Shown here: positions 26,546-45,128 of the stretch, piece by piece | How positions within the stretch are numbered: the first letter of the stretch is position 1 | How the letters are laid out: each line of letters opens with the position of its first letter | IMG/VR virus record: IMGVR_UViG_3300009678_000021 | Coordinates: 1 to 45,128 of that record | Direction: 5' to 3' (one strand) | Source: a virus | Taxonomy: Duplodnaviria; Caudoviricetes | DNA length: 45,128 nucleotides | Position numbers and translations under genes: made by a program | The notes under the pieces: model-generated | What the model saw: the letters and a program-made list of their open reading frames with translations, nothing else | The model's database searches: none | What the model was told of the DNA's origin: nothing

Positions 26546-26553
26546 GGGGTCCA

Positions 26554-28406: not shown

Positions 28407-28441
28407 AATGTACAGGACCATGATAGATTGTCAAATGACAA
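28407..28441 (-). promoter_or_regulatory. Leftward promoter with overlapping palindrome
   Basis: TTGACA (28434-29)-16 bp-TACATT (28412-07); TTGTCA-AA-TGACAA at 28428-28441. Confidence 0.55.
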
Positions 28442-28459
28442 GTACGTGATGAGGATGTA

Positions 28460-28651: not shown

Positions 28652-28931
28652 CTTGAGAATGGCAGCTCGTAGTCATTCAACTATGGCGCTCAATACGTTA
28701 GTGGGGATTGCGAGGCAAACGCAGTCGCCGCCAGCTGCCCGTGTGGCCGCGGCTACGCAGATCCTGGACCGCGGCTGGGGCAAGGCCGACCAGAACCACA
28801 CCGTCGACGGTGACATCAAGGTCACAATTCGCCATATCCTTGAACATATTGATGAAAAACCTGTCGTGATCGAGGGCAAAGAGGTGCTGACGATCGAGGC
28901 CGAGCCAGAGAAACCCGACGATGCAGCATGA
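28626..28931 (+). CDS. terS: Putative terminase small subunit
   Basis: ARSHSTMALNTLVGIA...ARVAAATQILDRGWGK...IKVTI; no other TerS candidate near TerL. Confidence 0.6.
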   Translation: MSKAKPMRDLRMAARSHSTMALNTLVGIARQTQSPPAARVAAATQILDRGWGKADQNHTVDGDIKVTIRHILEHIDEKPVVIEGKEVLTIEAEPEKPDDAA

Positions 28932-29080
28932 TCATCACGTGCAGATGTGGCGGATTGTTTTGCGGCTAAAACAGCTCGATCGGCTGTATGAATGGTGGGT
29001 TCCACGGTGTATGAGCTCGACGCCTGGTTCCTGGTGAGCGCCATGCTGCTACTGGTTGGGACGTATCTGCTTGAGACCAA

Positions 29081-29137
29081 ACTCTAACAAGTCTAACGTT
29101 AGACAGTGCTTGACTAACATCTGTTAGAGTGTAGTCT
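29081..29137 (+). promoter_or_regulatory. Promoter embedded in CTAAC/GTTAG repeats
   Basis: TTGACT-16 bp-TAGTCT; palindrome GTCTAACGTTAGAC 29091-29104; five half-sites. Confidence 0.6.
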
Positions 29138-29143
29138 ACCCCC

Positions 29144-29329
29144 ATGGAAATAGGGTTCTTGATCAGCACAATCGCCCGGGTCCGGCGAGCGATGCCTCGC
29201 AACGCTGACGCCATGGCGTTGTGTGACGAGCTTGAGCGTCTCCTGACCAAACCCACGAAACCGAAGTTTGATCGCGCCGGCTACATGAGAGAGTATATGC
29301 GCAAGCGCAGGGCCAAGGGTCAGACCTAG
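29144..29329 (+). CDS. Small protein with basic C-terminal helix (possible DNA binder)
   Basis: FDRAGYMREYMRKRRAK; ATG 6 nt after -10. Confidence 0.65.
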   Translation: MEIGFLISTIARVRRAMPRNADAMALCDELERLLTKPTKPKFDRAGYMREYMRKRRAKGQT

Positions 29330-29460
29330 TAAGGAGTACTGACCCAACTCGATGCAGGGGGTGGGGAGCCCCGACCCCGGTCGACCGGAATTATGGGACC
29401 CTAGATGGGACTCCTGTACCGGTAATGTCTAGTTCCTTGAAACCACCGTGGGAGGTTAAA

Positions 29461-29706
29461 ATGACGGTATGGTTCGACCCGAAAGAAAAGCTACCGCTAG
29501 ATGAGCAGGAATGCCTGCTTATGCCAGTAGATCACGGCGGCCTGACCACGATCGGCGTTTATGGGCCGATCTCGTGGGTGGCTAAGGATAAGGTCTGGAT
29601 GGACCTGTTCCGCGACCCCGAAGCCGGTTCAATCGTCCAACCAGAGCATGTTGGCAAGTGGTGCGATTGGTCCTCCATCGCCCCTGACGAGTCAGAGGAG
29701 ATCTGA
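29461..29706 (+). CDS. Hypothetical protein (DUF551-like start)
   Basis: GGAGGT RBS; WFDPKEKLP. Confidence 0.6.
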   Translation: MTVWFDPKEKLPLDEQECLLMPVDHGGLTTIGVYGPISWVAKDKVWMDLFRDPEAGSIVQPEHVGKWCDWSSIAPDESEEI

Positions 29707-29758
29707 CAAGGAACATTTCTTCGAACCTAGCAGACGGAAGGTCTTTTGAGGAGGAACC

Positions 29759-30121
29759 ATGGAGAGAGCGACCAACAGAGTACCGAGGTCTTTTCTGGAT
29801 TTTGATGATCCGGGGGCTGGTGACGATGAGCCCGTTAAGGGGATTACGGCGGGGGACATCCGGGCTTGGCACGACCAATATGACAACATTCTGTCCACTT
29901 GGGCTGATTGTCGCACGGCTCTATCGGCGGAAAGGGGTGCACTTCTAGCTGTTGTCCGCCTTGCGGGCGGCGAAGTGGAGGGGCACCCGACGTCGTCGAT
30001 TAACATCCTTCAGCGCATCCGCCAGTTAGTCAGGATTGAAGGGAGCTGGTTGGCTGACCGTGACCAAAAGATGTTGCCGGATCGCAACCGTGGTTGGAAA
30101 GTATTTGGCGAAGGAAAATAA
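29759..30121 (+). CDS. Hypothetical protein
   Basis: GAGGAGG RBS; RLAGGEVEGHPTSSINILQRI. Confidence 0.65.
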   Translation: MERATNRVPRSFLDFDDPGAGDDEPVKGITAGDIRAWHDQYDNILSTWADCRTALSAERGALLAVVRLAGGEVEGHPTSSINILQRIRQLVRIEGSWLADRDQKMLPDRNRGWKVFGEGK

Positions 30122-30204
30122 CGGGCTGCCCGTGGGGCGGCAGAGGATCCTTAAGTGGATGGCCCCACACATCATTTCCTCGAAACCACAAACCAGGAGG
30201 CAAC

Positions 30205-30408
30205 ATGAGCATCGGAGCGGAGCGTGTTCGGGAGAGTTTCAACCCTTCCAAGGACAATATGGTTGACAAGATCAAGCGGTACACGGCCGACCTGATTGAT
30301 CTGTGCGAGGATCTGAAGGCGCTCGAGCCGCGGCTTGCTGCGATGGCGCAGACGGCTTACGAGGAGGCGGCGATGTGGGCGGTGAAGGCGGCGACGACCA
30401 AGAAGTAG
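30205..30408 (+). CDS. Acb2/Tad1-like helical hairpin protein (candidate signal sponge)
   Basis: AGGAGG RBS; FNPS...VDKIK...ADLID...RLAAMAQTAYEEAAMWAVKAAT. Confidence 0.6.
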   Translation: MSIGAERVRESFNPSKDNMVDKIKRYTADLIDLCEDLKALEPRLAAMAQTAYEEAAMWAVKAATTKK

Positions 30409-30417
30409 GGAGGAACC

Positions 30418-30477
30418 ATGGCGAAGAAACCGAAGCCCAAGCCAACCCACAAGCCGAAACCGAGGCCGGGATGTTGA
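30418..30477 (+). CDS. 19 aa Lys/Pro-rich peptide
   Basis: GGAGGA RBS; MAKKPKPKPTHKPKPRPGC. Confidence 0.45.
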   Translation: MAKKPKPKPTHKPKPRPGC

Positions 30478-30701
30478 TACGTCCGAGGCCTCACTTGCCG
30501 GAACCCTGGCTTTATTCGGCCGAGGAGTATGCGCGACACCGGGCGGATTACGAGGTAGCGCTTGCCGAGTGGCATCGGGAGAAGGATCTGGTGATGCTGG
30601 CGCACGCCATTCCGGTGGTTTGTGTAACTGTGATGGGGATTGCGCTGGCGCTGGTGGGACCGTGGATCGTTTTGGACATGATCCGGATTTTGGCCCAATG
30701 A
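30471..30701 (+). CDS. Hypothetical membrane protein
   Basis: C-terminal hydrophobic helix; coupled to neighbours. Confidence 0.55.
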   Translation: MLIRPRPHLPEPWLYSAEEYARHRADYEVALAEWHREKDLVMLAHAIPVVCVTVMGIALALVGPWIVLDMIRILAQ

Positions 30702-30877
30702 ACGAACTTGATCGCTTGCAGGACATCAGAGTGGAAGAGGCTCGGGAGCGTGACCGGTTGCGCTCTGAGAACCGGTTGCTACGGGCCAGGGTTGCGGAAC
30801 TTGAGGCTGAGTGTGACCGGTGGGCCGATGCCTCGATCGCTGAGGACAATCGCCGAGCAAGAGGACCTAAATCATGA
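30698..30877 (+). CDS. Hypothetical coiled-coil protein
   Basis: ATGA coupling at both ends. Confidence 0.55.
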   Translation: MNELDRLQDIRVEEARERDRLRSENRLLRARVAELEAECDRWADASIAEDNRRARGPKS

Positions 30878-31179
30878 AACACATGGATCCGCCTGCGGAC
30901 GATCTTCGGGAGCGGTTCATTCTGTGGCTGGCCGGCAAGCCGCGGGACCAGCGGTACAATTGGGGCAATTCTGCGAAGTGTGCGTGCGGGTCGTTTATCC
31001 GGGAGGAGCTGAGCGAGCGGGTTACGCCCTACCGGTGGTTCCCGTGGTTTACGAAGGACGTCAAGTTTGACCAGTTGGCGGCGAACGAGGTGTGGTACCG
31101 CTGGAACACGCTGGCGAAGGACTGCGGGACGTATGGGGTCCTGTTGGACAAGGTGCGTGATGGCCAAGGGAGGGTCTGA
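30874..31179 (+). CDS. Hypothetical protein
   Basis: GAGGA RBS; FILWLAGKP...YNW...CACG. Confidence 0.65.
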   Translation: MKHMDPPADDLRERFILWLAGKPRDQRYNWGNSAKCACGSFIREELSERVTPYRWFPWFTKDVKFDQLAANEVWYRWNTLAKDCGTYGVLLDKVRDGQGRV

Positions 31180-31276
31180 TGGGAAAATATAATGAGACGC
31201 AATCCATATAGCTGGAAAGAGAACGCGATGTGGTTTGCGCTCGGGGCGGGTGCATTGGCTGCCATATGTGTGGCAT

Positions 31277-31453
31277 ATGGCTGACGACCTACTCGATCGG
31301 CTGGAGGACTGGAACGACGGCAGGAAGGTTCTGGCGGAGGCGATCGGGGAGATCAGGAAGCTGCGGGAGCGGATCGAGCAGTTGGAGGAGTTGAACCGGT
31401 TCCGGGTTCATCACGAACTGTACCGGGGGCTGAGACAGGAGAACGACGCATGA
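31277..31453 (+). CDS. Hypothetical coiled-coil protein
   Basis: DLLDRL...EAIGEIRKLRERIEQLE. Confidence 0.6.
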   Translation: MADDLLDRLEDWNDGRKVLAEAIGEIRKLRERIEQLEELNRFRVHHELYRGLRQENDA

Positions 31454-31614
31454 AGGAGAGACAAAGCCAGAAGCGCGAGGAACTGATTGATAAGTTCGCT
31501 GACATCTTCCACTCGTTTGGGGACCTCCACACCGTAACACCGCTGGCCTTCCTCGCCAAACTTGAGCGCAAGGGAATCACCATTTCCAGAAAGCCGAAGC
31601 CACGGCAGGAGTAA
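31450..31614 (+). CDS. Hypothetical 54 aa protein
   Basis: Translated by hand; AGGAG RBS, ATGA coupling. Confidence 0.5.
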   Translation: MKERQSQKREELIDKFADIFHSFGDLHTVTPLAFLAKLERKGITISRKPKPRQE

Positions 31615-31855
31615 CGACGGCTGAGTTATCGCAATTGCGAAACCGAGTTCCCGTTCCGTGATGTCACCGTGATCTCACACAGGTGGTGGGGTTTCTATAG
31701 GGACAACTTTACGCTAAGCACGATACCGGTAATTGAACGTCCATTCTCTTATGGGAGAGAATACGATGCAAAAACCGGACATCCGATTTGTAGTCGAAGT
31801 GACGCAAGGTGACCAACCCGACAAACCCGACTTCAACCACGGAATGGAGAATGGC

Positions 31856-32131
31856 ATGAACAATACCCAATGGCAGACCACACTCGCACCGGTAGTTTCA
31901 TTTTTTGCCGGCCTCCTCGCCGCCAAGATCCCGTGGCTAGACGCTGGCACCTGGACGCAGATCCTCGGCGGCGTTGTCGGGCTGGCCGCAACGTTGTGGG
32001 GTGGCCTCGCGGCGCGGCAGAACTCGCTTGTCTCCACGGTGGCCGCCATGGACGACGTTAAGTCGGTGACGCTGTCGCCGACTGCGCCGCAGAGTATGAT
32101 CACGGCAACACCGGCCAACGTTACAAAGTAG
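31856..32131 (+). CDS. Putative two-TM holin (alternative upstream start at 31766)
   Basis: GGAG RBS; two hydrophobic helices; upstream of a spanin pair. Confidence 0.6.
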   Translation: MNNTQWQTTLAPVVSFFAGLLAAKIPWLDAGTWTQILGGVVGLAATLWGGLAARQNSLVSTVAAMDDVKSVTLSPTAPQSMITATPANVTK

Positions 32132-32275
32132 ATGTTCTCGCGGGACCAGATCGTCATCACGGTTATCGTTACGCTGCTCGCGCTTTGCATCCCTTTTGGT
32201 GTGGGGATGGCGGTCTGGACCGGTAATACAAACTGGCTGATGCTCTGTGGCACCCTGTTGATATTTTTGTCATGA
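32132..32275 (+). CDS. 47 aa two-TM peptide
   Basis: Translated by hand: MFSRDQIVITVIVTLLALCIPFGVGMAVWTGNTNWLMLCGTLLIFLS. Confidence 0.55.
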   Translation: MFSRDQIVITVIVTLLALCIPFGVGMAVWTGNTNWLMLCGTLLIFLS

Positions 32276-32496
32276 ACATCATCGGCCTTGTGCTCGCGGT
32301 TCTGAAGTTCGTCAACTGGATCCTGTCGGCCGTCAGCCAGGAGCAATGGAAGCAGGACGGCCGGAACGAGGTGATCGCCGAAACCGCCCTGAACATCGCC
32401 CGCAAAGTCTCTTCCAAGAAAGCCATACAGGAGAAGGTCGATGCGATGTCGGACGAGGAACTTGATCTCGGTCTGCGCGATCTTGAGCCTAAATAG
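32272..32496 (+). CDS. Inner-membrane spanin (Rz-like)
   Basis: N-terminal TM then helical periplasmic region; overlapped by a lipoprotein gene. Confidence 0.65.
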   Translation: MNIIGLVLAVLKFVNWILSAVSQEQWKQDGRNEVIAETALNIARKVSSKKAIQEKVDAMSDEELDLGLRDLEPK

Positions 32497-32662
32497 CCTG
32501 GCGATGTGCGCGCATGTCGAGACGGTTGACAGTTTTTGTCAGCTCTACGGCCCGGTTATCGTCAACAAGGGTGACGGCGCCATCACGGCGAGAAGGGCGG
32601 TTAAGGCGCGCATTCTCGTCAACGAGCAGTTCTACCGGCAGGCCTGCGTGGGGAAAACATGA
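32441..32662 (+). CDS. Outer-membrane spanin lipoprotein (Rz1-like)
   Basis: Starts inside Rz in another frame; lipobox-like SLAM-C; DSFC...C-terminal C. Confidence 0.65.
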   Translation: MRCRTRNLISVCAILSLNSLAMCAHVETVDSFCQLYGPVIVNKGDGAITARRAVKARILVNEQFYRQACVGKT

Positions 32663-32859
32663 AGTTTCGCAGCAAAGAGAAGCGCGACGAGCTGGCCGAG
32701 TGTCTTGTAGCTCTTGCCAATTATATGCAGCGCTCTTTTGATCAAGGTAACCACGGGACAATTGTGGTCGACGATAGAATGATTGAAGATGTCAAGGCTG
32801 CTGCTTGCGTCGTCGCACTTAGCGCGTTCGAAGATGAAACGATGGTGGGATTGTTTTGA
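32659..32859 (+). CDS. Hypothetical protein
   Basis: ATGA coupling. Confidence 0.55.
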   Translation: MKFRSKEKRDELAECLVALANYMQRSFDQGNHGTIVVDDRMIEDVKAAACVVALSAFEDETMVGLF

Positions 32860-32888
32860 CCTTTATGGTGGCTGTCGAGCGATATGGC
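32852..32888 (+). repeat. Exact 37 bp direct repeat, copy 1
   Basis: TGTTTTGACCTTTATGGTGGCTGTCGAGCGATATGGC, identical to 35550-35586. Confidence 0.95.
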
Positions 32889-32953
32889 CGGGGTCGCGTG
32901 TGTGCTGCTGGCACTGGCCTTTACCGGTCTCTGGATGAAATAGGAAATAATGC

Positions 32954-33283
32954 ATGGCAACCGCCGTCATCACCGTAGCCTCTGGCGGTATTGCCGTTGT
33001 TGACGTCACGGCGACGACGCCGTTGCGCGGTGCGCCGGTGACCGAGGCGATCGCGGTTTCCGGTGTCAAGCGCGGCCTCGCCGTGACCAAGGTGGTCGCA
33101 CCGGTTCTCGGCATTCCGGTGACCTATATCTTCGAGGATGGCAGTCTCGATACCGGTGGCGGCGTTACGATTTCCGGCAGCTTGGCAACGATCGAGGCGA
33201 CGGATACCGCGTTGTTCAATGGTATTGTTGTTGCTCCCGTAACCAACTTCACTGCGGTCCGCATACATCACCTTCAGTGGTAA
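32954..33283 (+). CDS. Putative virion appendage adaptor with one ExxDxAxFxG repeat
   Basis: Val/Thr-rich beta N-terminus; GSLATIEATDTALFNG matches repeats in 1-2607. Confidence 0.7.
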   Translation: MATAVITVASGGIAVVDVTATTPLRGAPVTEAIAVSGVKRGLAVTKVVAPVLGIPVTYIFEDGSLDTGGGVTISGSLATIEATDTALFNGIVVAPVTNFTAVRIHHLQW

Positions 33284-33296
33284 AGGGAACCTGGTC

Positions 33297-33992
33297 ATGG
33301 TTGACAATAGCTCGCTTCCCGTTGCAAGCGGCAACGAAACGTTCGCCAATGATGACATCGGCGGCATTAAATATCCGCGCCCGAAGATCAATTGGGGTCC
33401 TGACGGTACGGCTAACGACGTTGATGTGGCTACCGGGAAACCTCTTCCGATTCAAATTCGTTCTGCTACGGGGCTGATTCCTTTTGGAGAGCCAACCGAC
33501 GCCAAGAGCGTCTCGACCGACACCACATCGGTTTCTGCGGTTTCGATCTGGAAACAGATCAGCGCCAGTGTGCAGTCACTCGTCACGTCGGCGGTTACAG
33601 TCGGCACCGCAGGCTCGCCCTCGACCCAGGTTCTGAGCGTGCAGGGGGTCGCGTCCGGTACCGCGCAGCCCGTCAGCAACACACCGCTGACCAATTTCGG
33701 CGCGGGTGAATATGAAACGGTAGCGGCCTCGCAGACGGCTCAGGCGCTCGGGGCGACGGGAGCGACGGGAGATTACATCTCTGGCATCCTTGTGATCCCG
33801 GCCACGACCTCCCCCGGCCTGGTCACGCTGCTCGATAACGCAATCTCGATCCCGGTGTTTGTCGGCGGCGCGACCAGCGTCTCCAACCTGGTGCCGTTCT
33901 TCATCCCTCTCGGGATGATCTCGGTTTCCGGAGCGTGGAAGATCACCACCGGCGCCAACGTGTCCTGCATCGGGATTGGGAACTTCACGTAA
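33297..33992 (+). CDS. Putative virion structural / fibre protein
   Basis: MVDN...DDIGGIKY..K..WGPDG...PLPI N-terminus; beta-rich C-terminal domain. Confidence 0.7.
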   Translation: MVDNSSLPVASGNETFANDDIGGIKYPRPKINWGPDGTANDVDVATGKPLPIQIRSATGLIPFGEPTDAKSVSTDTTSVSAVSIWKQISASVQSLVTSAVTVGTAGSPSTQVLSVQGVASGTAQPVSNTPLTNFGAGEYETVAASQTAQALGATGATGDYISGILVIPATTSPGLVTLLDNAISIPVFVGGATSVSNLVPFFIPLGMISVSGAWKITTGANVSCIGIGNFT

Positions 33993-34810
33993 TGGTATGG
34001 CCGGCGAGACCAGGGATAATCGCCGGGCGCGGCGCGCTCACGCCTGCGGCCGGGGGCGGCGCCTACGTAGGGCCGCTCGATACCAATCCAACCAATCTGT
34101 TTGGCTGGTGGGGCCTACGGGCGGCCAGTGCGGCCAAGTGCGGGACAAAGGCTATACGCATTGTCCGAGCGTCGGACAGCGCGCAGACCGATATCAACTC
34201 GCTGGCGGATGGCACCCTTGACGTCGCAACCGCTGCCACGTTCATGGCGGCGACGACGGCCAAGGTTGTTACCTTTTATGACCAGAGCGGTGCGCTCAAG
34301 AGTTTCGGGGCGGCCCTCGACCTGACGCAAGCTACTGACGGGAGCAGGGCTGCTTTCATCCTGAATGCCAACGGCTCGCTCCCCGCCGTTCGCTGTAGCG
34401 CAATTACGCAACTCTACAACAATTCCTCTGGCACGGTGCAGTCCGCGGTTACCACCGTATACGCCGCGTTTAAACGCACTGGTGATTTAACGGTTTTTCG
34501 GGCGGTTCTTTCACAAAATGGCGCGGGCTGGCAAATCGGCGCCGGTGACGCAAACAACAAAGCCCATATTTACGCCGGCACTTTCGTTACCGTCACCGCG
34601 ACCGATAATGCTTGGCACACATTATCAGCGCAGCTTAACGGAGCGAGCACCGTCGCGTCCGTAGATGGGTCGACCTCGACAGTTAGTCCCGGCACTCAGT
34701 TTACCGCTCCGAACTACACGATTAATATCGGGGGCTTTATAGGGGACTTCTTCGAAGCCGGCATCTGGCAAGCCGCCAAGACCGTCGCCAACGCGCCCGG
34801 TGCTCCATAA
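33992..34810 (+). CDS. Putative virion protein with AbfB/LamG-like beta-sandwich
   Basis: TAATG coupling; GPLD...WWGLR...[14 protein letters not shown]...FYDQSG...GDFFEAGIW. Confidence 0.7.
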
Positions 34811-36369
34811 TGTTCAGGCGCCAAACACCGATGGTGTTCGCCTATTACTTCTTGGCGACGAGCACTTACGGTAACTTGCAAGCCAACTATGCTCAGGACA
34901 TCACGGATGCGCAGGCGCTCGGCATTGACGGTTTTGCCGTTGCTGCGGGCGCCTGGGATACTCCCTACCAGACATGGGCGGCGGCGATGTTCGCGGCGGC
35001 ACAAGCTGCGGAGCTCAACGCAGACGGGACGAAGTTCAAACTCTTTATGTCTGCGGAAGTGGGAGGGTTGTTAACGACGGCGAATGTGCAGGCAATGGTT
35101 AATACCTTCAAAGGGACCGCCCCGGCGACGCCAACCGGAATCAGCAACACCAATTATTTCTGGTACGCCGGTAAACCGTTGTTGACCACGAGCAGCGGCG
35201 AATTGGGGTCACCCGCGTCGGACTCGGCGGCGGGCCAGGCGTTCTGGGCGTCGGTGTTCTCTGGGGGGTTTACCGCGTCGTTCTACCCGAATTTCCAGAC
35301 GCGGCGGCCGGTAGGTGGACAAGTCGACACCAATTGCCCAACCTACGCACAGGTTTCGGCCGACTGGAATACGTGGTGGAAGAACGTTGCCGAGGGGCTG
35401 TGCTATTTTCAGTTTGATGGCCTGGCGATTAACTCGGATGGATCGAAGGGAGATTTGACGGTTTCGGCGGAAGCCTATGCACAGTTGATGGGCGAAAATA
35501 GCCGGCTATTCATGAGTGGAATCAACAGCTACTACACGCAGAACAATTATGTTTTGACCTTTATGGTGGCTGTCGAGCGATATGGCTACGAGGGTTTGGC
35601 GTCGCAATGGAGTTCGATTATCAACACCCATAAACCGGTATGGGTGCTGTTGTGCACCTGGAATGATTTGGGTGAAGCCTACATGACGCCGGCCGATCCG
35701 GCTAACATGCCGCTCAATACGGCTCCAGACGTCAATGCGTGGCCGCATCAATACTCGCATGTGGGCTACGCCAAGTTTAATGCGATCTTTATCGAGCAGT
35801 ATAAGACAGGCGCTTCGCCAGCTATCACCAAGGATGAACTGTTCTATAATTACCGAACGCAGCCAGCCGCATTAGCCCCGCCGGCGACCAGCATCACCGC
35901 GTCGATCGCAGGTACCACGCTGACGGTGACGGCGATAGCGTCAGGGACGCTGTATCTCGGCCAGGTGTTGACGGGCTCCGGCGTCACGGCCGGTACGACG
36001 ATCGCCGAACAATTGACTGGAACGCCGGGTGGTGTAGGTACTTATCGACTGTGGCAGTCGCAGACCGTTTCGAGCCGGACCATTACCGGAATCGCCGTGA
36101 CGACCGCGTTCTTCAATCTTGAAGACAAGATTTATGTCACCACGCGGCTGACTGCGCCAGCAACGCTGCGCGTTATCACCGGTGGCTCAACTGTAGACAC
36201 AGCAGTACCCTCAGGTATGACCCACACCCGCATCCCCTTCAACACGGGAACGCAAATCATTCGATTGATTCGGGGTTCGACGCTGATCGATTTGACGGGA
36301 GATCCGATCAGTTCTTCTATTTTGTACTACAACCACAACCCGACGACGGGCTACGGAACCTACCCGTAA
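34810..36369 (+). CDS. Glycoside hydrolase family 71-like (alpha-1,3-glucanase) with inserted phage beta domain
   Basis: [60 protein letters not shown]. Confidence 0.78.
35550..35586 (+). repeat. Exact 37 bp direct repeat, copy 2 (inside GH71 gene)
   Basis: Identical to 32852-32888. Confidence 0.95.
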
Positions 36370-37754
36370 TGCCCCGTAACATCTCACTGCCGCACAAAGG
36401 TTGGGAACCTCGGCGGCACCAGATGAAGCTGTGGCGGTACTTGCAGGACGGGATTTTCAAGCGGGGCGGCGGCGACCGGGCGATTGCGATCTGGCACCGC
36501 CGCGCCGGCAAAGACGAGATCATGCTGCACCACTCGGCGGTGGCGTTGTGGCATCGGCCGGCGTCCTACTGGCACTGCCTGCCCGAGTTCCTGCAAGGCC
36601 GCAAGGCGATCTGGACCGCGGTCAACGCCCACACCGGGGTACGCCGGATCGATGAGGCGTTCCCGCACGCGATGCGGGAGACCACCAACGACAACGAAAT
36701 GTTCATTCGTTTTAAGAACGGTGCAACATGGCAAGTCATCGGTTCAGATCGATACGACGCCACTGTCGGCGCTGGTGTGGCGGGGATTACCTATTCGGAA
36801 TGGGCGCTGTCGAACCCGAGCGCCTGGGCCTACCACCGCCCGATGCTGGCGGAAAACAACGGGTGGGCAAGTTTCATCACGACCCCGCGTGGGCACAACC
36901 ACGCCAAGGCGATGTTCGACTACGCACGGACACGCTCGGAATGGTTCTCAGAACTGCTTACCGCGGTCGATACCGGGGCACTTTCAAGTGACGAATTGGA
37001 GCAGGCACGGGCCGAATATTGCGCCCTGCACGGCGAAGACGTCGGCAGGGCGCAGTTTGAACAGGAATATCTGTGCAGCTGGAATGCCGCAATCCTCGGC
37101 GCTTTCTATGCGCTGGAGATGGCCAATGTCCGGAAAGAGGAAAGGATTGTAGATGACCTGGAAGCCGATAACACACGGCCCGTGCACCGCGCTTGGGACC
37201 TCGGCGTGCGGGACGATACCACCATCTGGTGGTGGCAGAACGTCGGAGGCCAAGTCTACATTCTGGATTGCTATTCGGCCTCCGGAGTGGGCCTTGAACA
37301 CTACGCCGAAGTGGTTGAGCAGCACGAGAAAAAATACGGCTGGCGATCGGGCGTGGACTACGTTCCCCACGACGCCAAGATAAAGGAATGGGGATCGGGA
37401 AAGACCCGCGTCGAGACCATGGTCGAGATGGGGCTGCACCCCGAGCTGGTTCCCATGGCGACCATCGCGGACGGCATCAACGCGGTGCGCAGGGTGACGC
37501 CGCTTTGCGTGTTTCATGCGCGCTGCGAGGATGGTATCAATGCGCTGGAGCAGTACCGGCGGGAGTGGGACGATGACAAAAAAGCCTTTCGTGCTTCTGC
37601 TCTGCATGATTGGACTAGCCACTATGCTGACGCTTTTCGTTATCTGGCTCTAGCAAGGCAGAAGAACGAACCGAAACCGATACCGTCGCCGATACTACGC
37701 GGGCTGGTAATACCGCCACCGCGGGAAGGGCCTAGAATGGGATTGTTTCTGTGA
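36369..37754 (+). CDS. terL: Terminase large subunit
   Basis: Walker A WHRRAGKD, Walker B-like GITYSE, FITTPRG, nuclease AWDLG, PHDA, SHYADAFRY. Confidence 0.95.
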   Translation: MPRNISLPHKGWEPRRHQMKLWRYLQDGIFKRGGGDRAIAIWHRRAGKDEIMLHHSAVALWHRPASYWHCLPEFLQGRKAIWTAVNAHTGVRRIDEAFPHAMRETTNDNEMFIRFKNGATWQVIGSDRYDATVGAGVAGITYSEWALSNPSAWAYHRPMLAENNGWASFITTPRGHNHAKAMFDYARTRSEWFSELLTAVDTGALSSDELEQARAEYCALHGEDVGRAQFEQEYLCSWNAAILGAFYALEMANVRKEERIVDDLEADNTRPVHRAWDLGVRDDTTIWWWQNVGGQVYILDCYSASGVGLEHYAEVVEQHEKKYGWRSGVDYVPHDAKIKEWGSGKTRVETMVEMGLHPELVPMATIADGINAVRRVTPLCVFHARCEDGINALEQYRREWDDDKKAFRASALHDWTSHYADAFRYLALARQKNEPKPIPSPILRGLVIPPPREGPRMGLFL

Positions 37755-40024
37755 CAGACAAGCCGGTCGACGCCGACATCAGGTTTGATGATGCTGACTA
37801 CAACCCGACCATTGAACCGAACGATTCTAAGGCGTGGCTTAACCTGCTCAGAGAAAGCGAAGAGGCTTTCGAGGATTACAACAAACACTGCGATGATATT
37901 GATAAGCAGTATGCCCATTTAGCGAGGCTGGCTGGTGCCCGCGACAAGGAATTCTCCATGTTCTGGGCCAACATGGAAGTGGTCAAGCCCTCGATCTACG
38001 CCAAAGCGCCGGTGCCGGTCGTGGTGCCGAAGTTTTTGGACCGCCGGCCGGTCTACCAGGCGGCATCCGAGATGGTGGAACGCTGTGCGATCGTGGCGTT
38101 CGATCTTGGCGAGATCAACGATTTGATGAAACTGGTGCGTGACGATCTGGCGATACTCGATCGCGGCGTTGTCTGGTGCCGCAACGAGAGCGGCAACGGT
38201 CCGGGCGAATATTATCCATACGAGAAGGTATGCTACGATTTCAAGAATCGGCGGGATTTCCTGCACTCGATCTCGCGGAACTGGAGAGAGGTGACCTGGG
38301 TGGCCGGCGCCTCCTATCTGACACGGCAGGAAGCGCGGAAGCGGTTTTACAAATATTCCGGGGACGCCTATCAGGAAGCCGACTACAAGGTCGACCGCGA
38401 CGCAAAAGAGGTTGGAGGCGCCGATGCCAGAGAACGGGCAAAGTTCTGGGAAGTCTGGGACAAGAAAAATCGACGAGTTCTTTGGGTGTCTGAAGGTTGC
38501 GAAGACATTCTGGATGAGGACGACCCGCATCTGCACCTTCGCAATTTCTTTCCCTGTCCGAAGCCAGCTTACGGGACGACTCAGCGTGGATCACTCGTTC
38601 CCGTGCCTGACGTTATGCAGTACAAGGACCAGCTCAAAGAGATCAACCTGCTTACCGGCCGTATTCATGCACTGAGCGACGCGGTCGAGGTCAAGGGGTT
38701 CTACCCGGCCGGCGGCGGCGAGGTTGCCGATGCGGTCACGACGGCGGTCAAGATCAAAACGCCCGGTGTGGTGATGGTGCCGGTCTCGAATTGGGCGACG
38801 TTCGGCGGGACCAAGGAAGTCATCATCTGGCTGCCGGTTGAGGTGATCGCGCAGACCATTCTGCATTTAGTTACGCTGCGCAAGCAAATCATCGAAGATA
38901 TCTACCAGATCATCGGCCTCTCCGACATCATGCGCGGCTCGACCAACCCGATGGAAACGCTCGGCGCGCAGCAACTGAAATCGCAGTATGGCTCGACCCG
39001 CATCAAGGACAAGCAGGGGGAGCTGGTGCGGCTGGCGCGCGACCTCGTCGAGATCACGATCGAGATCATCACCGAGAAATTCGACCCCGAGACCATGATC
39101 GAGATGTCGCAGACCGAGTTGCCGACCAACCGTCAAATCGAGCAACAGATTCGGCAGATCATGCAGCAGGCACAGCAGGCGGCAATGTCGCCGCAGGGCC
39201 AGCAAATGATGGCGCAACAGCCCGAACAGGTGCAGCAGATCCAGGCCCAGGTGCAGGCGCAGGTCGAGAAACTGAGCAAGCAGGCGACGATCGACCAAGT
39301 GCTGACCTTGGTGAAGGATTACCGCGCGCGCGCCTTCACCTTCGACATCGAGACCGATTCCACCATCCAGGCCGACGAGCAGGCCGAGAAGCAGCAGCGC
39401 AACGAATTTACCGGGGTTTTGGCGCAACTGTTGCCGCAGATCGCGCAGATGGTTGCCGCCGAGCCCAAGACCGCAGAATTCTGCGGCGAGATCCTGAAGT
39501 TCGCCACCGCCCCGTACCGCGCCGGCCGCGCTATGGAGGGCGCGATTGATGGCTTGGTCGAGCTGATGAAGACCAAGGGCGACCAGCCCAAGGGCGACGA
39601 CCCCGCCACCGCGCAGAGCAAGGCGCAGATGCAGGTCGAACAGATGAAGGTGCAGCAGAAAGACAAGACCGACCAAGCCAAGCTGAAGCTGGAGGCCGAA
39701 AAGGCCCAGATGCAGAACCAGCAGCACATGGCTACATTGGCCAACCAACGCGCGATCGAGCTGGCCAAGTTGCAGGCAGGCGCCCAGGATGACGAGGCCA
39801 AGGCCGGCCTGGCCAACCAGAAGGCCATGAACGAGCGCGAGAAGCACCAGGCCAAGATGGTCGAGACCGCGGTAAAGGTGCAGGCTGACCAGCAGAAGGT
39901 CGAACTACAGGAACGTCAGCAGCAGTTACGTGCTAATGATATGGCGGCGCGGCAGAACGAGCGGCAGCAGGCGGCGGCGTTCAAGCAGCAGCAGGCCACG
40001 GCTAGTAAGGGAATCGTGCCATGA
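37751..40024 (+). CDS. Portal protein with long Gln-rich coiled-coil C-terminus
   Basis: 757 aa directly after TerL; IYQIIGLSDIMRG...ETLGAQQLK, DIETDSTI. Confidence 0.88.
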   Translation: MTDKPVDADIRFDDADYNPTIEPNDSKAWLNLLRESEEAFEDYNKHCDDIDKQYAHLARLAGARDKEFSMFWANMEVVKPSIYAKAPVPVVVPKFLDRRPVYQAASEMVERCAIVAFDLGEINDLMKLVRDDLAILDRGVVWCRNESGNGPGEYYPYEKVCYDFKNRRDFLHSISRNWREVTWVAGASYLTRQEARKRFYKYSGDAYQEADYKVDRDAKEVGGADARERAKFWEVWDKKNRRVLWVSEGCEDILDEDDPHLHLRNFFPCPKPAYGTTQRGSLVPVPDVMQYKDQLKEINLLTGRIHALSDAVEVKGFYPAGGGEVADAVTTAVKIKTPGVVMVPVSNWATFGGTKEVIIWLPVEVIAQTILHLVTLRKQIIEDIYQIIGLSDIMRGSTNPMETLGAQQLKSQYGSTRIKDKQGELVRLARDLVEITIEIITEKFDPETMIEMSQTELPTNRQIEQQIRQIMQQAQQAAMSPQGQQMMAQQPEQVQQIQAQVQAQVEKLSKQATIDQVLTLVKDYRARAFTFDIETDSTIQADEQAEKQQRNEFTGVLAQLLPQIAQMVAAEPKTAEFCGEILKFATAPYRAGRAMEGAIDGLVELMKTKGDQPKGDDPATAQSKAQMQVEQMKVQQKDKTDQAKLKLEAEKAQMQNQQHMATLANQRAIELAKLQAGAQDDEAKAGLANQKAMNEREKHQAKMVETAVKVQADQQKVELQERQQQLRANDMAARQNERQQAAAFKQQQATASKGIVP

Positions 40025-41577
40025 GCGACGTTTCCGGCATTCCCAATATGGGAATTCCAGCCCTGAGCGGCTTCAACGGCGGTGGCGGAACCAACAACAG
40101 CGGCTACTTCCAAGATCCCGGTTTCAGCCTCGCCAACGCTTTCGCCCAGCGCAATGCCAATAACAACTATTTCGGTAACCAGGCCCAGACCCTGGCAGCG
40201 GCCGAAATACCGCAGGCACAATTGTATGGCGGCGGCAGCTTCGGCGCGCAGCCGGCCCATTACGCCGGGGTCGGCGCAGCTTTCGGCCGCGCGACCGGCG
40301 GCTTCAACGCCAAGCCTGCCGCCCCGGCACCGCCGACGCAGGTTCCGGTCGACAGCAGCATCTTCGACACCGCAGGGACCGACCCGGTGCCTTACCTCAA
40401 CACGGGTGGCGGTGACCCGTTCGGCGGCGGTGGATTCGGCCGCATGCCCACCGCGTTCGACACCGGCACGCAGGGGATTCCAAATCTGAGCGGTGGCGGG
40501 ACACCGTTCGGCGGCGGTGGATTTGGCAGCCCGCCTCCTCCTTACACACCGAATTTCGACGCTGTGTTCGACAGCAACTTTTCTCCGGCGAACCCTACGA
40601 TCGGGTTTAGTCGTGGGCGCTCGATGCCGCCGGGGGCCGGCTACGACCCCGGCGCCAGTGCGACATTGCCCCCGGGACCGCCGCCATCAAGATTCGATCC
40701 CCAAAGGGCCATTGATGCCGTCAATCAATTCAGCGGCGTCGGGACCGAGCCGCAGCCGTCCACCGCGCCGGGAAGCAATGCCGGCGGCGCCAACCCGTTC
40801 ACGTCTGGTGCTGACCCGATAACCAACTTGGGAAGCCCGTTCGCGGCTGGCCGCGGGTTTCAGGCGGCGCCGCCCAGCCCGTTCGAGGCGGGAGCGCCAG
40901 GTATCGGGGCCACCCTGTTGCCGGCATTTAACAGGGCAACACCGGGCGGTGGCGTCGGTAGTTTGACCGCGCCGCCGAATTTTGCGCCCTCCAGCCCGTT
41001 CGAGAGCGGTGGCACCCCGTTCAACTATGCGGGCGACTACCGCGGCAGCTTGCGTAACCAGATCAACCAGACGACCATCGGCGGCGGCGGTGGTTTTGAT
41101 CCAAGTGCCCCGCCTCCGGCGAGGGAGGGGTTCGGGCCGTCAAGCCCGTTCGTGGGCGGAGCTCCGCCGGTGTCGCACCAGTCCACCGCGAGCGGCCAAG
41201 CCTTTCCGGTGCCGGGCATCGGCGGCTACCGCGGCAACATGCGCGACCAGATCGCGGCGATCATGTCCGGCAGCCAAGGCATGACCGAGCCAACCAGCGG
41301 GCCGCCGCTGGTCAATGGCGGGCCGAATGGCACATCGGGTGCCACGAGCGGCCCGACCCCTACACAGATGAATGATGCTTGGCGCAGGATCGGCGCCGGT
41401 CCTGGCAGTCCTGGCGTCTCCAGCATTGCGCAGCAAACGCCGCCGCCCCCGGCGCCTTACGCTCGAATCAACCAGGCGATTTACGACATCGGAAACGTCA
41501 GTCAGCCTGGCATGTTCGACAACCTGTCCCGCCCACTGGGCCAGATGTTTTCACCGGGTCAGTACAGGGGACGTTGA
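40021..41577 (+). CDS. Gly/Pro/Phe-rich low-complexity protein (putative internal virion protein)
   Basis: ATGA coupling to portal; repeated PFGGGGFG and SPF motifs. Confidence 0.7.
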   Translation: MSDVSGIPNMGIPALSGFNGGGGTNNSGYFQDPGFSLANAFAQRNANNNYFGNQAQTLAAAEIPQAQLYGGGSFGAQPAHYAGVGAAFGRATGGFNAKPAAPAPPTQVPVDSSIFDTAGTDPVPYLNTGGGDPFGGGGFGRMPTAFDTGTQGIPNLSGGGTPFGGGGFGSPPPPYTPNFDAVFDSNFSPANPTIGFSRGRSMPPGAGYDPGASATLPPGPPPSRFDPQRAIDAVNQFSGVGTEPQPSTAPGSNAGGANPFTSGADPITNLGSPFAAGRGFQAAPPSPFEAGAPGIGATLLPAFNRATPGGGVGSLTAPPNFAPSSPFESGGTPFNYAGDYRGSLRNQINQTTIGGGGGFDPSAPPPAREGFGPSSPFVGGAPPVSHQSTASGQAFPVPGIGGYRGNMRDQIAAIMSGSQGMTEPTSGPPLVNGGPNGTSGATSGPTPTQMNDAWRRIGAGPGSPGVSSIAQQTPPPPAPYARINQAIYDIGNVSQPGMFDNLSRPLGQMFSPGQYRGR

Positions 41578-41759
41578 TGATTCTTGCTGTCTTATTTGCA
41601 ATTTTTGCTGTTTTTGGTCTGTTGCTGGCTGTTCTGGATTTTGGTGCCAAGATGAACAGCCCTGCTCCCAGCATGTATCGAAGTGATGTCGGTGGTTTTG
41701 GATTTAGTATTTTCATCGTGTGTGGGGTGATTGCCCTTGCTTGTGTCGCATCATTCTAA
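41577..41759 (+). CDS. Low-GC two-TM membrane protein (moron-like)
   Basis: TGATG coupling; T-rich DNA; two hydrophobic helices. Confidence 0.6.
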   Translation: MILAVLFAIFAVFGLLLAVLDFGAKMNSPAPSMYRSDVGGFGFSIFIVCGVIALACVASF

Positions 41760-41780
41760 TCGACCAAAGGAGAGAACATA

Positions 41781-42374
41781 ATGGCCCAGAGTGCACTGAC
41801 CGTGACCCCAGAGAACCCGACCCCGCCCACAAACCTTTCATTCGTCGGCACCACGCCACCGACCGACCCCTTGCAGGAATACGCCGATGACGGTTGGACC
41901 TCGCCGGGTGCCGACACCACGGTATTTGCGGTCAAGACGGCCGCGGAAGGCGACGGCACCAGCGTCGAGCACGAGGGTAGGGGCACCGAAACGTCAGCGA
42001 CCATGTCATACGCCTCAACCATCATGCTCGGCGCGACGGGCGCTCTGGTGATGGTCGGCTCTACCGCGGCCTACACCACGACGCCGAACGCCTCGCATGC
42101 CTCCTCGCTGTCGCCGGCCACCAACCCGACGCTGACGACGGCCACACCAACCACGGCCTCCGGCGCCGGCAATGCCACGGTCACGGCGACCGGCGTAGGT
42201 TTCACCCGGCAAAGCGTTATCTGGGTGAACGGTATCCCATACCCGACGACGTATGTCAGCTCAACGTCGCTAACGGCCTCTGCACCCAAGAAGGCCACCT
42301 CCGGCACTTTGCCCGTGACCGTCGTCACCGGTGGTGTGGTTACCACAGCAGCCCAGAACTGGACCTTCACGTAA
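41781..42374 (+). CDS. Virion protein with C-terminal IPT/TIG Ig-like domain
   Basis: AAAGGAGAG RBS; PTLTTATP...VTATGVGFT...IWVNG...TTYVSSTSLTA...WTFT. Confidence 0.78.
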   Translation: MAQSALTVTPENPTPPTNLSFVGTTPPTDPLQEYADDGWTSPGADTTVFAVKTAAEGDGTSVEHEGRGTETSATMSYASTIMLGATGALVMVGSTAAYTTTPNASHASSLSPATNPTLTTATPTTASGAGNATVTATGVGFTRQSVIWVNGIPYPTTYVSSTSLTASAPKKATSGTLPVTVVTGGVVTTAAQNWTFT

Positions 42375-42385
42375 GGACAACAGCC

Positions 42386-42748
42386 ATGCCCGACAACATC
42401 AACCCGAACGCCAACAGCAAGGAAAGCGCCCGCAAACCCGGCGATATCACGTCGCACTCGATCAACGAGCCGGGGAAGGGTGCGCCCAAGGCCTTCAAGG
42501 TGCCCGAGGATCACACCCTCACGACGGCGGAAACCTTGAAGCAGGATTACCCGGACGGCTATGTCGTCGAGTATGTTGCGCCGACGGTGACAGTGTCGGT
42601 TGCCCCGAAGCCGACAGACAAGACAACCCTGAAGCTGGCAAAGGCCGGCAAATCGGACCCGGACGACCTCGAAGACGAGATCGACCAGGCCGAGCGGAAC
42701 GGCGATTTCAAGTCAATGCATCGCTCGCCGCCCAGCAAGAAGAAGTGA
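42386..42748 (+). CDS. Hypothetical late protein
   Basis: AAGGA RBS; biased codons. Confidence 0.7.
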   Translation: MPDNINPNANSKESARKPGDITSHSINEPGKGAPKAFKVPEDHTLTTAETLKQDYPDGYVVEYVAPTVTVSVAPKPTDKTTLKLAKAGKSDPDDLEDEIDQAERNGDFKSMHRSPPSKKK

Positions 42749-42751
42749 GCC

Positions 42752-43162
42752 ATGGCTATTACCTATTCCATCTCAGGCGGAGCCGATGCCCTCAAATTCA
42801 ACATCGACCCCGCGAGCGGCGCGCTGACGTTCAAGGTGGCACCAAACTTCGAAGTGCCGGGAGATGCCAACGGCGATAATATCTACGAGGTGATCGTCAA
42901 GGCGGCCGACGCCACCGGTCTCAGTTCAACAAAACCTATGCAGGTGATCGTCACCGATGTTCTTGAAGGGTCACCCCCTCAGATTACTTCTGCGGCGACA
43001 ATCGCAGTGAAAGAGAATCAGCTTGTGGTGCTGACGGTGACCGCAACCGATCCTGATGATGTACCGGGCGCAAAGCCTCCAACGATTACTTCTGCCATCG
43101 CTGTTAATGCTGGTGAAAACCAGAAAAATGTCATGACGGTAACAGCGGCGGCTGGGGTGTAA
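42752..43162 (+). CDS. Permuted cadherin-like protein: strands C-G followed by two A-B segments
   Basis: ITYSISGGADALKF...APNFEVPGDANGDNIYEV...VTDV, then PPQITS...ENQ...TVTATDPD and PPTITS...ENQ...TVTA. Confidence 0.8.
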   Translation: MAITYSISGGADALKFNIDPASGALTFKVAPNFEVPGDANGDNIYEVIVKAADATGLSSTKPMQVIVTDVLEGSPPQITSAATIAVKENQLVVLTVTATDPDDVPGAKPPTITSAIAVNAGENQKNVMTVTAAAGV

Positions 43163-43163
43163 A

Positions 43164-44309
43164 ATGGCCATTACCTTTTCGATTACCGGCGGTGCCGACG
43201 CGGCAAAGTTCACCATCAACGCAACATCCGGCGTCTTGGCATTCATTACTGCGCCCAATTTCGAGCTGCCGACAGACGCTAACGGCGATAATGTCTACGA
43301 GGTGACGGTACGGGCTACGGACTCGCAAGGACTGTTTGACGCCAAGACCGTCCTGGTGACTGTAACGGATGTAGCCGAGGGCGGGGCGCTGCCGCCGCTG
43401 ACCAATTCAGGCTCCATCACGGTGACATCAAACAACCAGGTGATCGAGAACAGGAACATCACGGGCAGGGTTACGATTGGCGCATTCACTGGTGTTACCG
43501 TTCGCAATTGCATCATCAGGCACGCCGCCGATGTCGGCCTCTTGGCAACAAATTCGGTCAACCTGACACTTCAGGATCTCGAATTCATCAACACGTCGTC
43601 GCCATCGGGGCAAACGCCGACGTCAGGCGAAGTCAAAAACATGGAGCTGTCGAGAACATCCGGGACAACCCTTCTCGAACGTATCAAGGTTACAGGCGGG
43701 TGTGGTCTGTACGGGTACATCATCGGCGGGACACTTATTGTTCGCTTTCTGGAAGGCCATAACGTTCGCGGGATGGCAACCAGTCCCTACCGCGGCAATC
43801 TGTTCCAACTCAATCAATGCACCGCGACGACAACGGTCGAGGATTTCTCCGTCGAGAATGATATCAACAACAGTTGGCCGGAAGATAGTTGCAGCGTCCA
43901 TTATTGCACGGGGGCAATGACATTCAGACGCGGCTACCTGAAAGGTCAATCATCGCCAACCGGCGTCGCGTTCATGGTCGAGCATACCAATGGTGTGATT
44001 GTCGAGGACGTTGATTGCGAAAATCACTTCAATGGCGCCTTTTCGGTCTATGACACTTCGGCAAACGTGACCTATCGGCGCTGCCGCGCGAAAAATCAGC
44101 TCTTGACCAACCAAGGCCGCGGCAATCCCACCTCGAACTATTGTAATTTCGTGTCGGCGCCGGGCGTAACCGGGACACGGTTCGAGCAAGTCAAGTATTG
44201 GAATATCAGTTCCAACCTCGCTTGGCAGACACCATTTACGGTGATGGATTGGGCACCGTTAAATTTTACTCCGCGTGCGCCAATCCGCAACCGAACCCCC
44301 GGGACTTAA
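43164..44309 (+). CDS. N-terminally incomplete cadherin-like domain fused to a right-handed beta-helix (putative depolymerase/adhesin)
   Basis: MAITFSITGGADAAKF...APNFELPTDANGDNVYEV; then VIENRNI, VTVRNCII, VIVEDV coils. Confidence 0.8.
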   Translation: MAITFSITGGADAAKFTINATSGVLAFITAPNFELPTDANGDNVYEVTVRATDSQGLFDAKTVLVTVTDVAEGGALPPLTNSGSITVTSNNQVIENRNITGRVTIGAFTGVTVRNCIIRHAADVGLLATNSVNLTLQDLEFINTSSPSGQTPTSGEVKNMELSRTSGTTLLERIKVTGGCGLYGYIIGGTLIVRFLEGHNVRGMATSPYRGNLFQLNQCTATTTVEDFSVENDINNSWPEDSCSVHYCTGAMTFRRGYLKGQSSPTGVAFMVEHTNGVIVEDVDCENHFNGAFSVYDTSANVTYRRCRAKNQLLTNQGRGNPTSNYCNFVSAPGVTGTRFEQVKYWNISSNLAWQTPFTVMDWAPLNFTPRAPIRNRTPGT

Positions 44310-44325
44310 CAAAGGAGAGAGTACA

Positions 44326-44742
44326 ATGCCTGTTGTTTATAGCGATCCGCTCAAGACTGCCCGCCTGCAAGACATGAGCGACTTGACGAATAGCAAGACA
44401 ATCGTCGCGGCATCCGGCGCTGGCTCGACCGGCAAGCTGGTGATCGGGACGTCGGCCTTGAGCGGTGCAACGGGGGTGCTGGCCACGATTGTTATTCCAA
44501 ACCCTGCTTTTGTGGTTTCCGGCACCGGGACCGTGATCGCTACCCTTCAAGGCGTCCCGTTATCGGTCGCGGCGAGCGGTTCGGGGACGGCGGCAAAGGC
44601 CGAGATTCGCAACAATGCGGACGCGGTTGTCACGAGCGGTCTTACGGTTGGCCTGTCAGCATCGGATATCATCCTCAACTCGCTATCGATTACCGCGCCG
44701 CAGACCGTGACCGTTACCTCGGGCGTTATTACTCACGGGTAA
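44326..44742 (+). CDS. Small beta-rich virion protein (candidate fibre subunit)
   Basis: AAAGGAGAG RBS; 138 aa; ASGSGTAAKAEI...GLTVG...DIILNS.SITA.QTVTVTSGVITHG. Confidence 0.75.
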   Translation: MPVVYSDPLKTARLQDMSDLTNSKTIVAASGAGSTGKLVIGTSALSGATGVLATIVIPNPAFVVSGTGTVIATLQGVPLSVAASGSGTAAKAEIRNNADAVVTSGLTVGLSASDIILNSLSITAPQTVTVTSGVITHG

Positions 44743-44745
44743 ATC

Positions 44746-45128
44746 ATGGCTCGCGTTTGGTCATGCGGCTTTGAAACGGGGACGCTCGGCCATGAACTGG
44801 CCGGCAGTATAAGCGGCACGCCTGTCATCCAGAGTACGCGCGTCCGCAGCGGCAACTATGCGTTCCAGTGCTCTCAACCGTCGCTTATGTACCGCGAGAG
44901 CAAGCTCGGCCTCAATCTAACGACTTGTTATTTCCGGCTCTACATCTATACGGCGGCGTTTCCGACTGGTTCCTACATTGGCATCGGCGGGCTCAGTAAT
45001 TCGTCGGATGCCGATATTTTCAATATCAGGTTGACTGGCGCGACGATCGCGCCAGCCGGGCGAATCCAGCTTTACAATTCGTCAAGCGGGTCGGATGTGC
45101 TGTTGGGCACCGGCACGGCCGTTTTGAA
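44746..45128 (+). CDS. 5' part of the origin-spanning appendage gene (continues to 1765)
   Basis: ATG 44746 MARVWSCGFETG...VRSGNYAF...YFRLYIY; open to window end. Confidence 0.85.
   Translation, partial: MARVWSCGFETGTLGHELAGSISGTPVIQSTRVRSGNYAFQCSQPSLMYRESKLGLNLTTCYFRLYIYTAAFPTGSYIGIGGLSNSSDADIFNIRLTGATIAPAGRIQLYNSSSGSDVLLGTGTAVL
45006..45128. repeat. Terminal direct repeat copy 2
   Basis: Identical to 1-123. Confidence 0.97.

Follow-up and report, generated by a model that had tools for sequence, protein, structure and literature searches.

Introduction

Completion of an immunoglobulin-like fold in trans joins anchor, shaft, and tip in the chaperone-usher pili (Fim/Pap/Caf1), and chaperone-free donor-strand filaments are reportedly also formed by TasA and by the archaeal bundling pili. 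Head-to-tail donor-strand polymerization without a chaperone, triggered and reinforced by Ca2+, has been described for the cannulae of Pyrodictium (10.1101/2024.12.30.630787); the cannulae, TasA, and the bundling pili are cellular and secreted, are built from TasA-superfamily folds, and use one donor strand. In the baseplate tripod of the lactococcal phage Tuc2009, a C-terminal 25-residue beta-hairpin of BppU completes the beta-sandwich of BppA, and a carbohydrate-binding module is held in place by the resulting composite Ig domain, which is titin-like (PMC4742702), and in the nozzle of the Xanthomonas podophage Xacm4-11 the beta-sandwiches of gp30 and gp31 are built from strands of two neighboring gene products (10.64898/2026.02.16.706137). 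The composite domain as a virion joint is thus already known.

The window analyzed here, the whole stretch of 45,128 nt, encodes a cadherin-like domain distributed over three genes. Throughout, acceptor (A) denotes cadherin strands C–G and donor (D) denotes strands A, A′, and B. The sequence source of the module is the cadherin-like arrays (PF00028, PF17803) of bacterial RTX-type surface proteins, in which the donor precedes the acceptor within one chain at each of the 320 junctions examined. The split-cadherin system would work like the Tuc2009-type joints and like the donor-strand filaments, and belongs to neither family. By their anatomy, D3 and D2 are candidates for the part that the C-terminal piece of BppU plays in completing the beta-sandwich of BppA. 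The Tuc2009 joint is a single, fixed one between two different proteins; the present module, in contrast, has a cadherin fold and Ca2+ motifs, carries socket and plug in permuted order within one chain, is predicted to self-chain, and has more donors than acceptors. The Xacm4-11 case is a split core tail protein of fixed stoichiometry; the present module is, in contrast, a mobile adaptor on varied cargo proteins.

As in donor-strand filaments, an incomplete fold is combined with an extension that carries the missing strands. Unlike the cannulae and TasA, however, the system is phage-encoded, has no evident signal peptide and a cadherin fold, and donates ∼30 residues (A, A′, and B) from the C-terminal side. 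It differs from the chaperone-usher pili in having no chaperone or usher, in that the missing part is A–A′–B rather than G, and in that the donor lies C-terminal to the acceptor instead of forming an N-terminal extension; the subunits start directly with the acceptor, unlike secreted chaperone-usher subunits. No chaperone or usher gene was found among the 25–26 larger ORFs scanned with Pfam and PHROGs. No split or permuted cadherin in a phage was found in the literature searched, the scope of which left out most subscription papers. What sets this variant of strand complementation apart is a single repeat, shifted out of register, that would act as socket and plug at once, in company with another split fold.

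Genome and setting of the cluster

The window carries an exact 123-nt terminal repeat, so that the genome closes into a circle of 45,005 bp in which 44746..1765 is one ORF of 674 amino acids; the classification of the record is likewise that of a complete genome, of the type with direct terminal repeats. This ORF is unbroken in the overlapping contig L014, on which the entire gene cluster is present with one mismatch in 8,383 nt. PHROG matches to terminase (36369), portal (37751), major capsid (4561), and tail and ejection genes follow a podophage-like order, with the cadherin cluster between the portal and major capsid genes. Near-identical DNA occurs in groundwater and sediment runs (24 runs listed, six examined), and none of the listed runs is an RNA dataset.

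Just 5′ of the terminase, the interval 33935–36369 holds a glycoside hydrolase family 71 gene (E 1.4e-42) and a laminin G/arabinofuranosidase-like gene, representing more glycan-active cargo. A TIG-domain protein is encoded at 41781–42374, with 50% overall identity to L010 7835–8425; its first ∼30 residues are highly conserved and presumably resemble a strand and the start of an FN3 repeat, and this N-terminal piece could be another plug. The small cassette-flanking proteins 42386–42748 and L010 ∼8270–8796 have a short SINEP motif in common.

Anatomy and conservation of the split cadherin pieces

The pieces and their neighbors are listed in Table 1. Gene 42752 is organized as A-D-D-stop, gene 43164 as A plus a beta-helix, and the 674-aa origin-spanning gene ends in D. 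The acceptor of the first gene matches the Pfam Cadherin profile (PF00028) at positions 31–90 of 93 (E 2.6e-8; 34.6 bits versus a cut-off of 28.8) and is joined to D1 via a normal inter-repeat linker. The acceptor of gene 43164, a gene lacking any donor, matches only from profile position 31 of 93 (E 9.7e-4). A genome-wide profile search returned exactly four matches, covering the two acceptors and three donors, and an intact seven-strand cadherin domain in one chain occurs neither in the window nor in the 24 acceptor-first loci described below. Contigs of three of four runs (X2, X3, and X4, with X2 possibly the source sample) bridge the 43160–43166 junction without indels, as do listed contigs of two of four runs (X3 and X5) for the 1762–1771 junction.

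Table 1. Positions of the split-domain pieces and associated features in the 45,128-nt window.
Feature	Coordinates	Strand	Description
Acceptor A1	42752..42967	+	Strands C–G; start of 136-aa gene 42752..43162
Donor D1	42974..43060	+	Strands A, A′, B of next repeat; EN and DxD kept
Donor D2	43076..43159	+	Second A–A′–B piece; ends at stop codon; without DxD
Acceptor A2	43164..43379	+	Start of 381-aa gene, one base past upstream stop
Right-handed beta-helix cargo	43380..44309	+	Pfam Beta_helix, E 3.1e-6
138-aa virion structural protein	44326..44742	+	phrog_3758, E 1.5e-6
674-aa anchor/adaptor gene, start	44746..45128	+	Continues at 1..1765
Six ∼22-aa TLAxTE..D.A.F.G scaffold repeats in anchor	836..1216	+	Repeat family
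SPRY-like beta-sandwich body (socket) without last strands	1223..1663	+	Directly before D3 in anchor
Donor D3	1679..1762	+	Extreme C-terminus of 674-aa anchor gene
First SPRY-like tail (plug)	1771..1881	+	Start of 278-aa repeat-scaffold gene 1771..2607
Second SPRY-like tail	2041..2142	+	Inside 278-aa scaffold

Donor and acceptor profiles built from 167 intact bacterial repeats were used for a six-frame scan of 93 loci; the metagenome scan comprised the best 80 of 162 confirmed stretches. The repeat is intact in 65 loci, with donor then acceptor (320 junctions) 4–6 residues apart in one chain, and in these 65 loci the bacterial cadherin arrays are never cut at the B–C site. A further 24 loci have an ORF with Met directly before the acceptor and an intact donor–acceptor junction in none, and four loci fit neither class. 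Subtraction of four repeat fetches and two copies of this phage from the 24 acceptor-first loci leaves 18 contigs, several of them close pairs, and the acceptor-first start recurs on at least 18 distinct contigs of other phages. The layout on these 18 is acceptor-donor-cargo in one chain on 16; one is cut by the contig end, and one (L016) has the two-gene layout of the window, including the 42752/43164 junction. Cargoes vary among the relatives, comprising several kinds of beta-helix and one cargo without a Pfam match.

Among 15 homologues of similar length that were compared, the A-D-D-stop arrangement is kept in P0002–P0004 (63–83% identity) and in the cluster member P0150, P0005 (57% identity) has a similar A-D-D layout with a garbled second donor, and eight others are ordinary fragments. 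D2 and its stop are conserved in L016, P0002, P0004, and P0150. A terminal donor of the D3 type is present in five of 13 non-self matches to the last 188 residues of the anchor (P0137–P0141), three of which carry a different N-terminal domain. In L005, a separate gene (7166–8131) has a free cadherin donor at its beginning and a GH16-like domain behind it (Pfam E 0.037, a weak match); this gene overlaps the stop of an acceptor-donor-beta-helix gene.

Relative to L016, dN/dS is 0.16 for A1, 0.05 for D1, 0.14 for D2, and 0.08 for A2 (28–74 codons each, with dS of 1 or more), D3 standing outside the comparison for want of a relative with DNA; by this measure each piece compared is under purifying selection. 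In a quick tree of 68 columns, 15 acceptors from acceptor-donor chains form one clade (SH-aLRT 98) and two 43164-type acceptors fall elsewhere, which is only a hint that the latter are of separate origin. The identity of the module to contiguous bacterial junction stretches is 40–57%.

The cadherin module has no match among 50,697 GenBank phage records. Exact patterns for the acceptor start and for the phage-type linker gave no match in 185,579 prokaryote genomes, a comparison that would miss diverged copies, and hence no prophage or host is identified. In viral contigs the donor-then-stop pattern gave no match, and the donor pattern returned only contigs already found. A search for longer homologues was swamped by bacterial arrays (4,343 matches among 7,999 candidates) and therefore says nothing on fused phage forms. 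Seemingly intact cadherin domains of the same repeat type are encoded in other phages at L012 9824–10510 and L013 8906–10504.

The split cadherin pieces are real, conserved, and under selection. The original prediction had described two acceptors and three donors with no complete cadherin-like domain, which the Pfam matches and the genome-wide profile search bear out, and had placed the cut in the B–C loop, a site that proves to be conserved in relatives. It had further argued that two genes beginning at the same residue speak against random decay; in agreement, the start recurs on 18 other contigs, with dN/dS of 0.05–0.16. As for the checks proposed with it, homologues do have the same starts (on 18 contigs) and stops (at 57–83% identity), the contigs of three of four runs are free of indel errors at 43160–43166, and the continuous array that relatives might have encoded here is not seen, none of the 24 acceptor-first loci having an intact junction.

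Geometry and predicted structure

Aligned to solved cadherins, the A-D unit runs without interruption from one repeat into the next, and with Foldseek the AF2 model aligns over ∼104 columns across pairs of cadherin repeats. In cadherins strand A starts at the domain end opposite to where strand G finishes. The G-to-A linker here has five residues, versus three to four in 308 of 332 intact bacterial junctions, and is too short for strand A to reach the far end of its own domain, so that the donor points into the next domain. The AF2 model of the 42752 monomer calculated with a 104-row alignment (pLDDT 94.6, pTM 0.71) pairs strands only in residues 4–66 and leaves the donor outside the sheet. 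A single-sequence AF2 model (pLDDT 43.5) was set aside, and donor placement is unreadable in the Atlas model (pTM 0.51).

A model of three copies scored 0.56, versus 0.00 for the best of three controls, with contact agreement between runs of at least 92% and partner pLDDT of at least 82; among proteins solved as pairs 20 of 30 attained the mark used, and among those solved as single chains one of 23 did, a calibration made with two copies and not three. Insertion in this model is head-to-tail: copy 3 receives the donor of copy 2 in its acceptor, and copy 1 receives that of copy 3. Residues 82/84/86 pair with 62/64/66 and residues 93/95/97 with 27/25/23, a register that agrees with A′ running next to G and B next to E. 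Both models were calculated with an alignment of 92 contiguous bacterial junctions and 12 phage sequences (104 rows), and because 92 of the 104 rows are contiguous bacterial ones it leans towards next-domain geometry; likeness to solved cadherins may also help the three-copy score.

The junction motifs (linker D and E, EN, PxFE, DxD, and AxDxxG), which we take to be inter-repeat Ca2+ ligand motifs, are all kept in 17 of 17 acceptor-D1 chains. In the donors that have no preceding cadherin repeat, DxD is absent (six of six D2) or reads DxG (six of six D3). This pattern fits a composite junction that would exist only between chained subunits.

Cargo, anchor, and a second split domain

The beta-helix of gene 43164 shares 47% identity over 318 columns, right up to its final residue, with the cargo that L001 carries in one chain with acceptor-donor, and, judging from its family, likely binds or cuts polysaccharide. 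The gene for the 138-aa protein follows the beta-helix gene both here and in L001, with 57% identity between the two proteins. This protein gives a weak match (E 0.0067) to a 141-aa chain of PDB 9RKV, the tail-fiber entry of phage 7-7-1; from the chain count and size, we infer that this chain may be the garland protein described with the baseplate of that phage. As acceptor-donor-cargo is the commoner form (16 of 18 contigs), D2 and 43164 of the window together look like a non-covalent cargo side arm, and the simplest history would be the insertion of a D-stop/start-A piece into an acceptor-donor-cargo gene.

Scaffold repeats of ∼22 residues occur in two proteins of the window, of 674 and 278 amino acids, and belong to a widespread family (376 proteins matched). 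The SPRY-like body that precedes D3 matches, at 48% identity, the initial ∼140 residues of a domain that is intact in P0144, and ends at the same point in P0137–P0143, including P0142 and P0143, which are without the cadherin donor. The first tail aligns to P0144 six residues past the end of the body (pairwise E 6e-9) and starts at the same point in P0152. Two such tails are present also in P0152, which starts with a tail, and in P0153, where they lie inside the repeat scaffold with no body apparent. A second domain is thus split at a conserved site between the anchor and the next gene, with two plugs for one socket; the original prediction did not include it. The SPRY label is weak, the body being without a Pfam match and the relatives P0147 and P0257 falling below the PF00622 cut-off (E 0.005 and 0.001, respectively; Atlas lead 0.78). 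No viral locus was found for the 1771 protein, and two distant ones were found for the SPRY-like region, of which L097 has an intact domain.

Among the 150 scaffold-repeat matches listed, P0155, P0156, and P0179 contain inserts of ∼25 residues that by eye resemble A′–B strands of another cadherin subtype; the cadherin donor profile gives no match to them. P0225, P0251, P0264, P0281, P0201, and P0223 have in common an ADST-x-x-TAD insert at the same repeat position, possibly a docking tag.

Proposed chain

The 136-aa protein may be viewed as a cadherin repeat out of register, having strands C–G followed by strands A–B of the next domain. D1 of copy n is predicted to insert into A1 of copy n+1, and conservation of the motifs suggests that the composite junctions have Ca2+ sites, which would make the chain stiffer once the cell has lysed. 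From the gene history and adjacency, D2 would capture the acceptor of 43164 and so place one beta-helix on each subunit, as is achieved covalently in relatives. D3 of the 674-aa protein would fill the first free acceptor and start the chain, and the SPRY-like socket of the same protein would be completed by one of the two plugs on the 278-aa scaffold. The likely purpose would be multivalent display of exchangeable glycan-binding or glycan-cutting domains towards host surface polysaccharide.

Trans complementation of the cadherin pieces is likely. Three kinds of protein carry a donor that does not directly follow an acceptor, namely those with D2, with D3, and with the donor that begins the L005 GH16-like gene, and such donors need a partner in trans, unless D2 folds back. 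That the pieces combine into an anchored, open, chaperone-free, pilus-like chain with beta-helix side arms on the virion is the reading that we favour on balance. Its likely place on the virion is suggested by the setting of the cluster, which has the portal gene on one side and the major capsid gene on the other and adjoins a PHROG virion structural protein. A free donor that could anchor the chain is not seen on 15 of the 16 acceptor-donor-cargo contigs, the five records checked being 10–50% complete, and the position of the module, as judged by eye, changes from one phage type to another, so that a shared virion anchor is less evident. Only tentatively do we extend the proposal to the full series, in which a repeat scaffold with SPRY-like plugs would hold an adaptor that converts to cadherin plugs, and this in turn would carry a Ca2+-stiffened, self-polymerizing pilus with an exchangeable glycan-active domain on each subunit.

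Of the donor-strand system first put forward, trans head-to-tail insertion is now predicted for three copies of 42752, and pairing of the other pieces stays at the level of inference. Self-complementing acceptors, which would have spoken against it, are not what the AF2 monomer gives, the donor being left outside its own acceptor. The further suggestion that 42752 polymerizes or branches is retained for polymerizing, which the model predicts; the branch point is not, as D2 with 43164 looks instead like a cargo side arm.

Alternative explanations

A serious alternative, though the less likely one, is a discrete assembly in which acceptor-donor-cargo closes into a small domain-swapped ring, such as a trimer with its beta-helices bundled, while 42752 of the present phage works as a 1:2 adaptor, with D3 in its acceptor and a beta-helix on each of its two donors. 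In most relatives no initiator or terminator is seen, as would be the case for a ring or adaptor, and phage beta-helix spikes are often trimers. The linker, one or two residues longer than in bacterial arrays and containing Gly-Ser-Pro, also suits a ring, and contact between copies 1 and 2 is not reported by the three-copy model, the output of which scored the partner only. However, the Ca2+ ligand motifs of the junction are conserved throughout, which speaks for a junction that is straight and stiff, and the free donors on cargo and scaffold proteins (D3 and L005) fit open ends better.

An improbable reading is that the protein is a self-complementing circular permutant, in which A′ and B fold back into their own acceptor, or D2 does so with D1 as linker, and free donors merely swap in. 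The strand-A motif PPxITS is conserved right after the five-residue linker, AF2 does not fold D1 back, and the three-copy model prefers inter-chain insertion, all of which argue against it; these models nevertheless rest on a biased alignment, and the 33-residue D1 is long enough for D2 to reach its own acceptor. A self-filled state would, moreover, keep the acceptor soluble without a chaperone.

Alternatively, the chain might form and be a soluble enzyme or lectin polymer released at lysis rather than part of the virion, which we consider still less probable. The cassette occupies varied genome positions in varied phage types, in L003 directly after an endolysin-like gene (by eye), and no anchor is seen in most of the partial relatives. 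In the present phage, on the other hand, the cassette is located in the head module, next to the gene of a virion structural protein that accompanies it in L001 too, and D3 stands at the end of a repeat scaffold whose family is typically found in structural clusters.

A +1 frameshift near 43155–43166 that fuses 42752 to 43164 and restores an intact domain is very improbable. It would place eight residues between strand B and strand C, as against 8–10 in intact arrays, the stop-one-base-start spacing is the same in L016, and phages are known to have Ig-like extensions made by frameshifting. In L016, the one relative with junction DNA, the G-run ahead of the stop is, however, not conserved, the stretch reading there as a ribosome-binding site, and the tail past strand B varies from two to four residues among homologues. 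Furthermore, on 17 other contigs none of the frames holds a donor upstream of the first acceptor, and the frameshift leaves D3 and the L005 donor unexplained as well. RNA-level rejoining was dropped, since it would need back-splicing for D3 and self-circularization for the single-gene form.

An assembly artefact or the decay of a captured bacterial cadherin array, despite the abundance of intact arrays of the same repeat in bacteria (4,343 of 7,999 candidates; 65 of 93 loci), is already refuted by the conservation and selection results, namely the contigs without indels, the shared starts and stops at 57–83% identity, the dN/dS of 0.05–0.16, and the clade with SH-aLRT 98.

Conclusions

Annotation pipelines would class all of the split-domain genes described here as fragments. 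For protein engineering, they would, if the proposed reading holds, offer a unit of 103 residues that chains by itself, and compact pairs of naturally split domains (cadherin and SPRY-like). In phage 7-7-1, the proteins of the flexible capsid or neck fibers are still unidentified (PMC12796354), and the proposed chain provides a testable model for such fibers without identified proteins. A tag of ∼30 residues would explain how receptor-binding or depolymerase domains might be exchanged. If the full series tentatively proposed above is true, there would be a virus-encoded donor-strand pilus and two orthogonal natural split-domain tags reused across unrelated phage types. If the open-chain reading is true, phages would make pilus-like polymers by strand complementation, a mechanism so far known from cellular filaments and from single fixed joints in phage baseplates.
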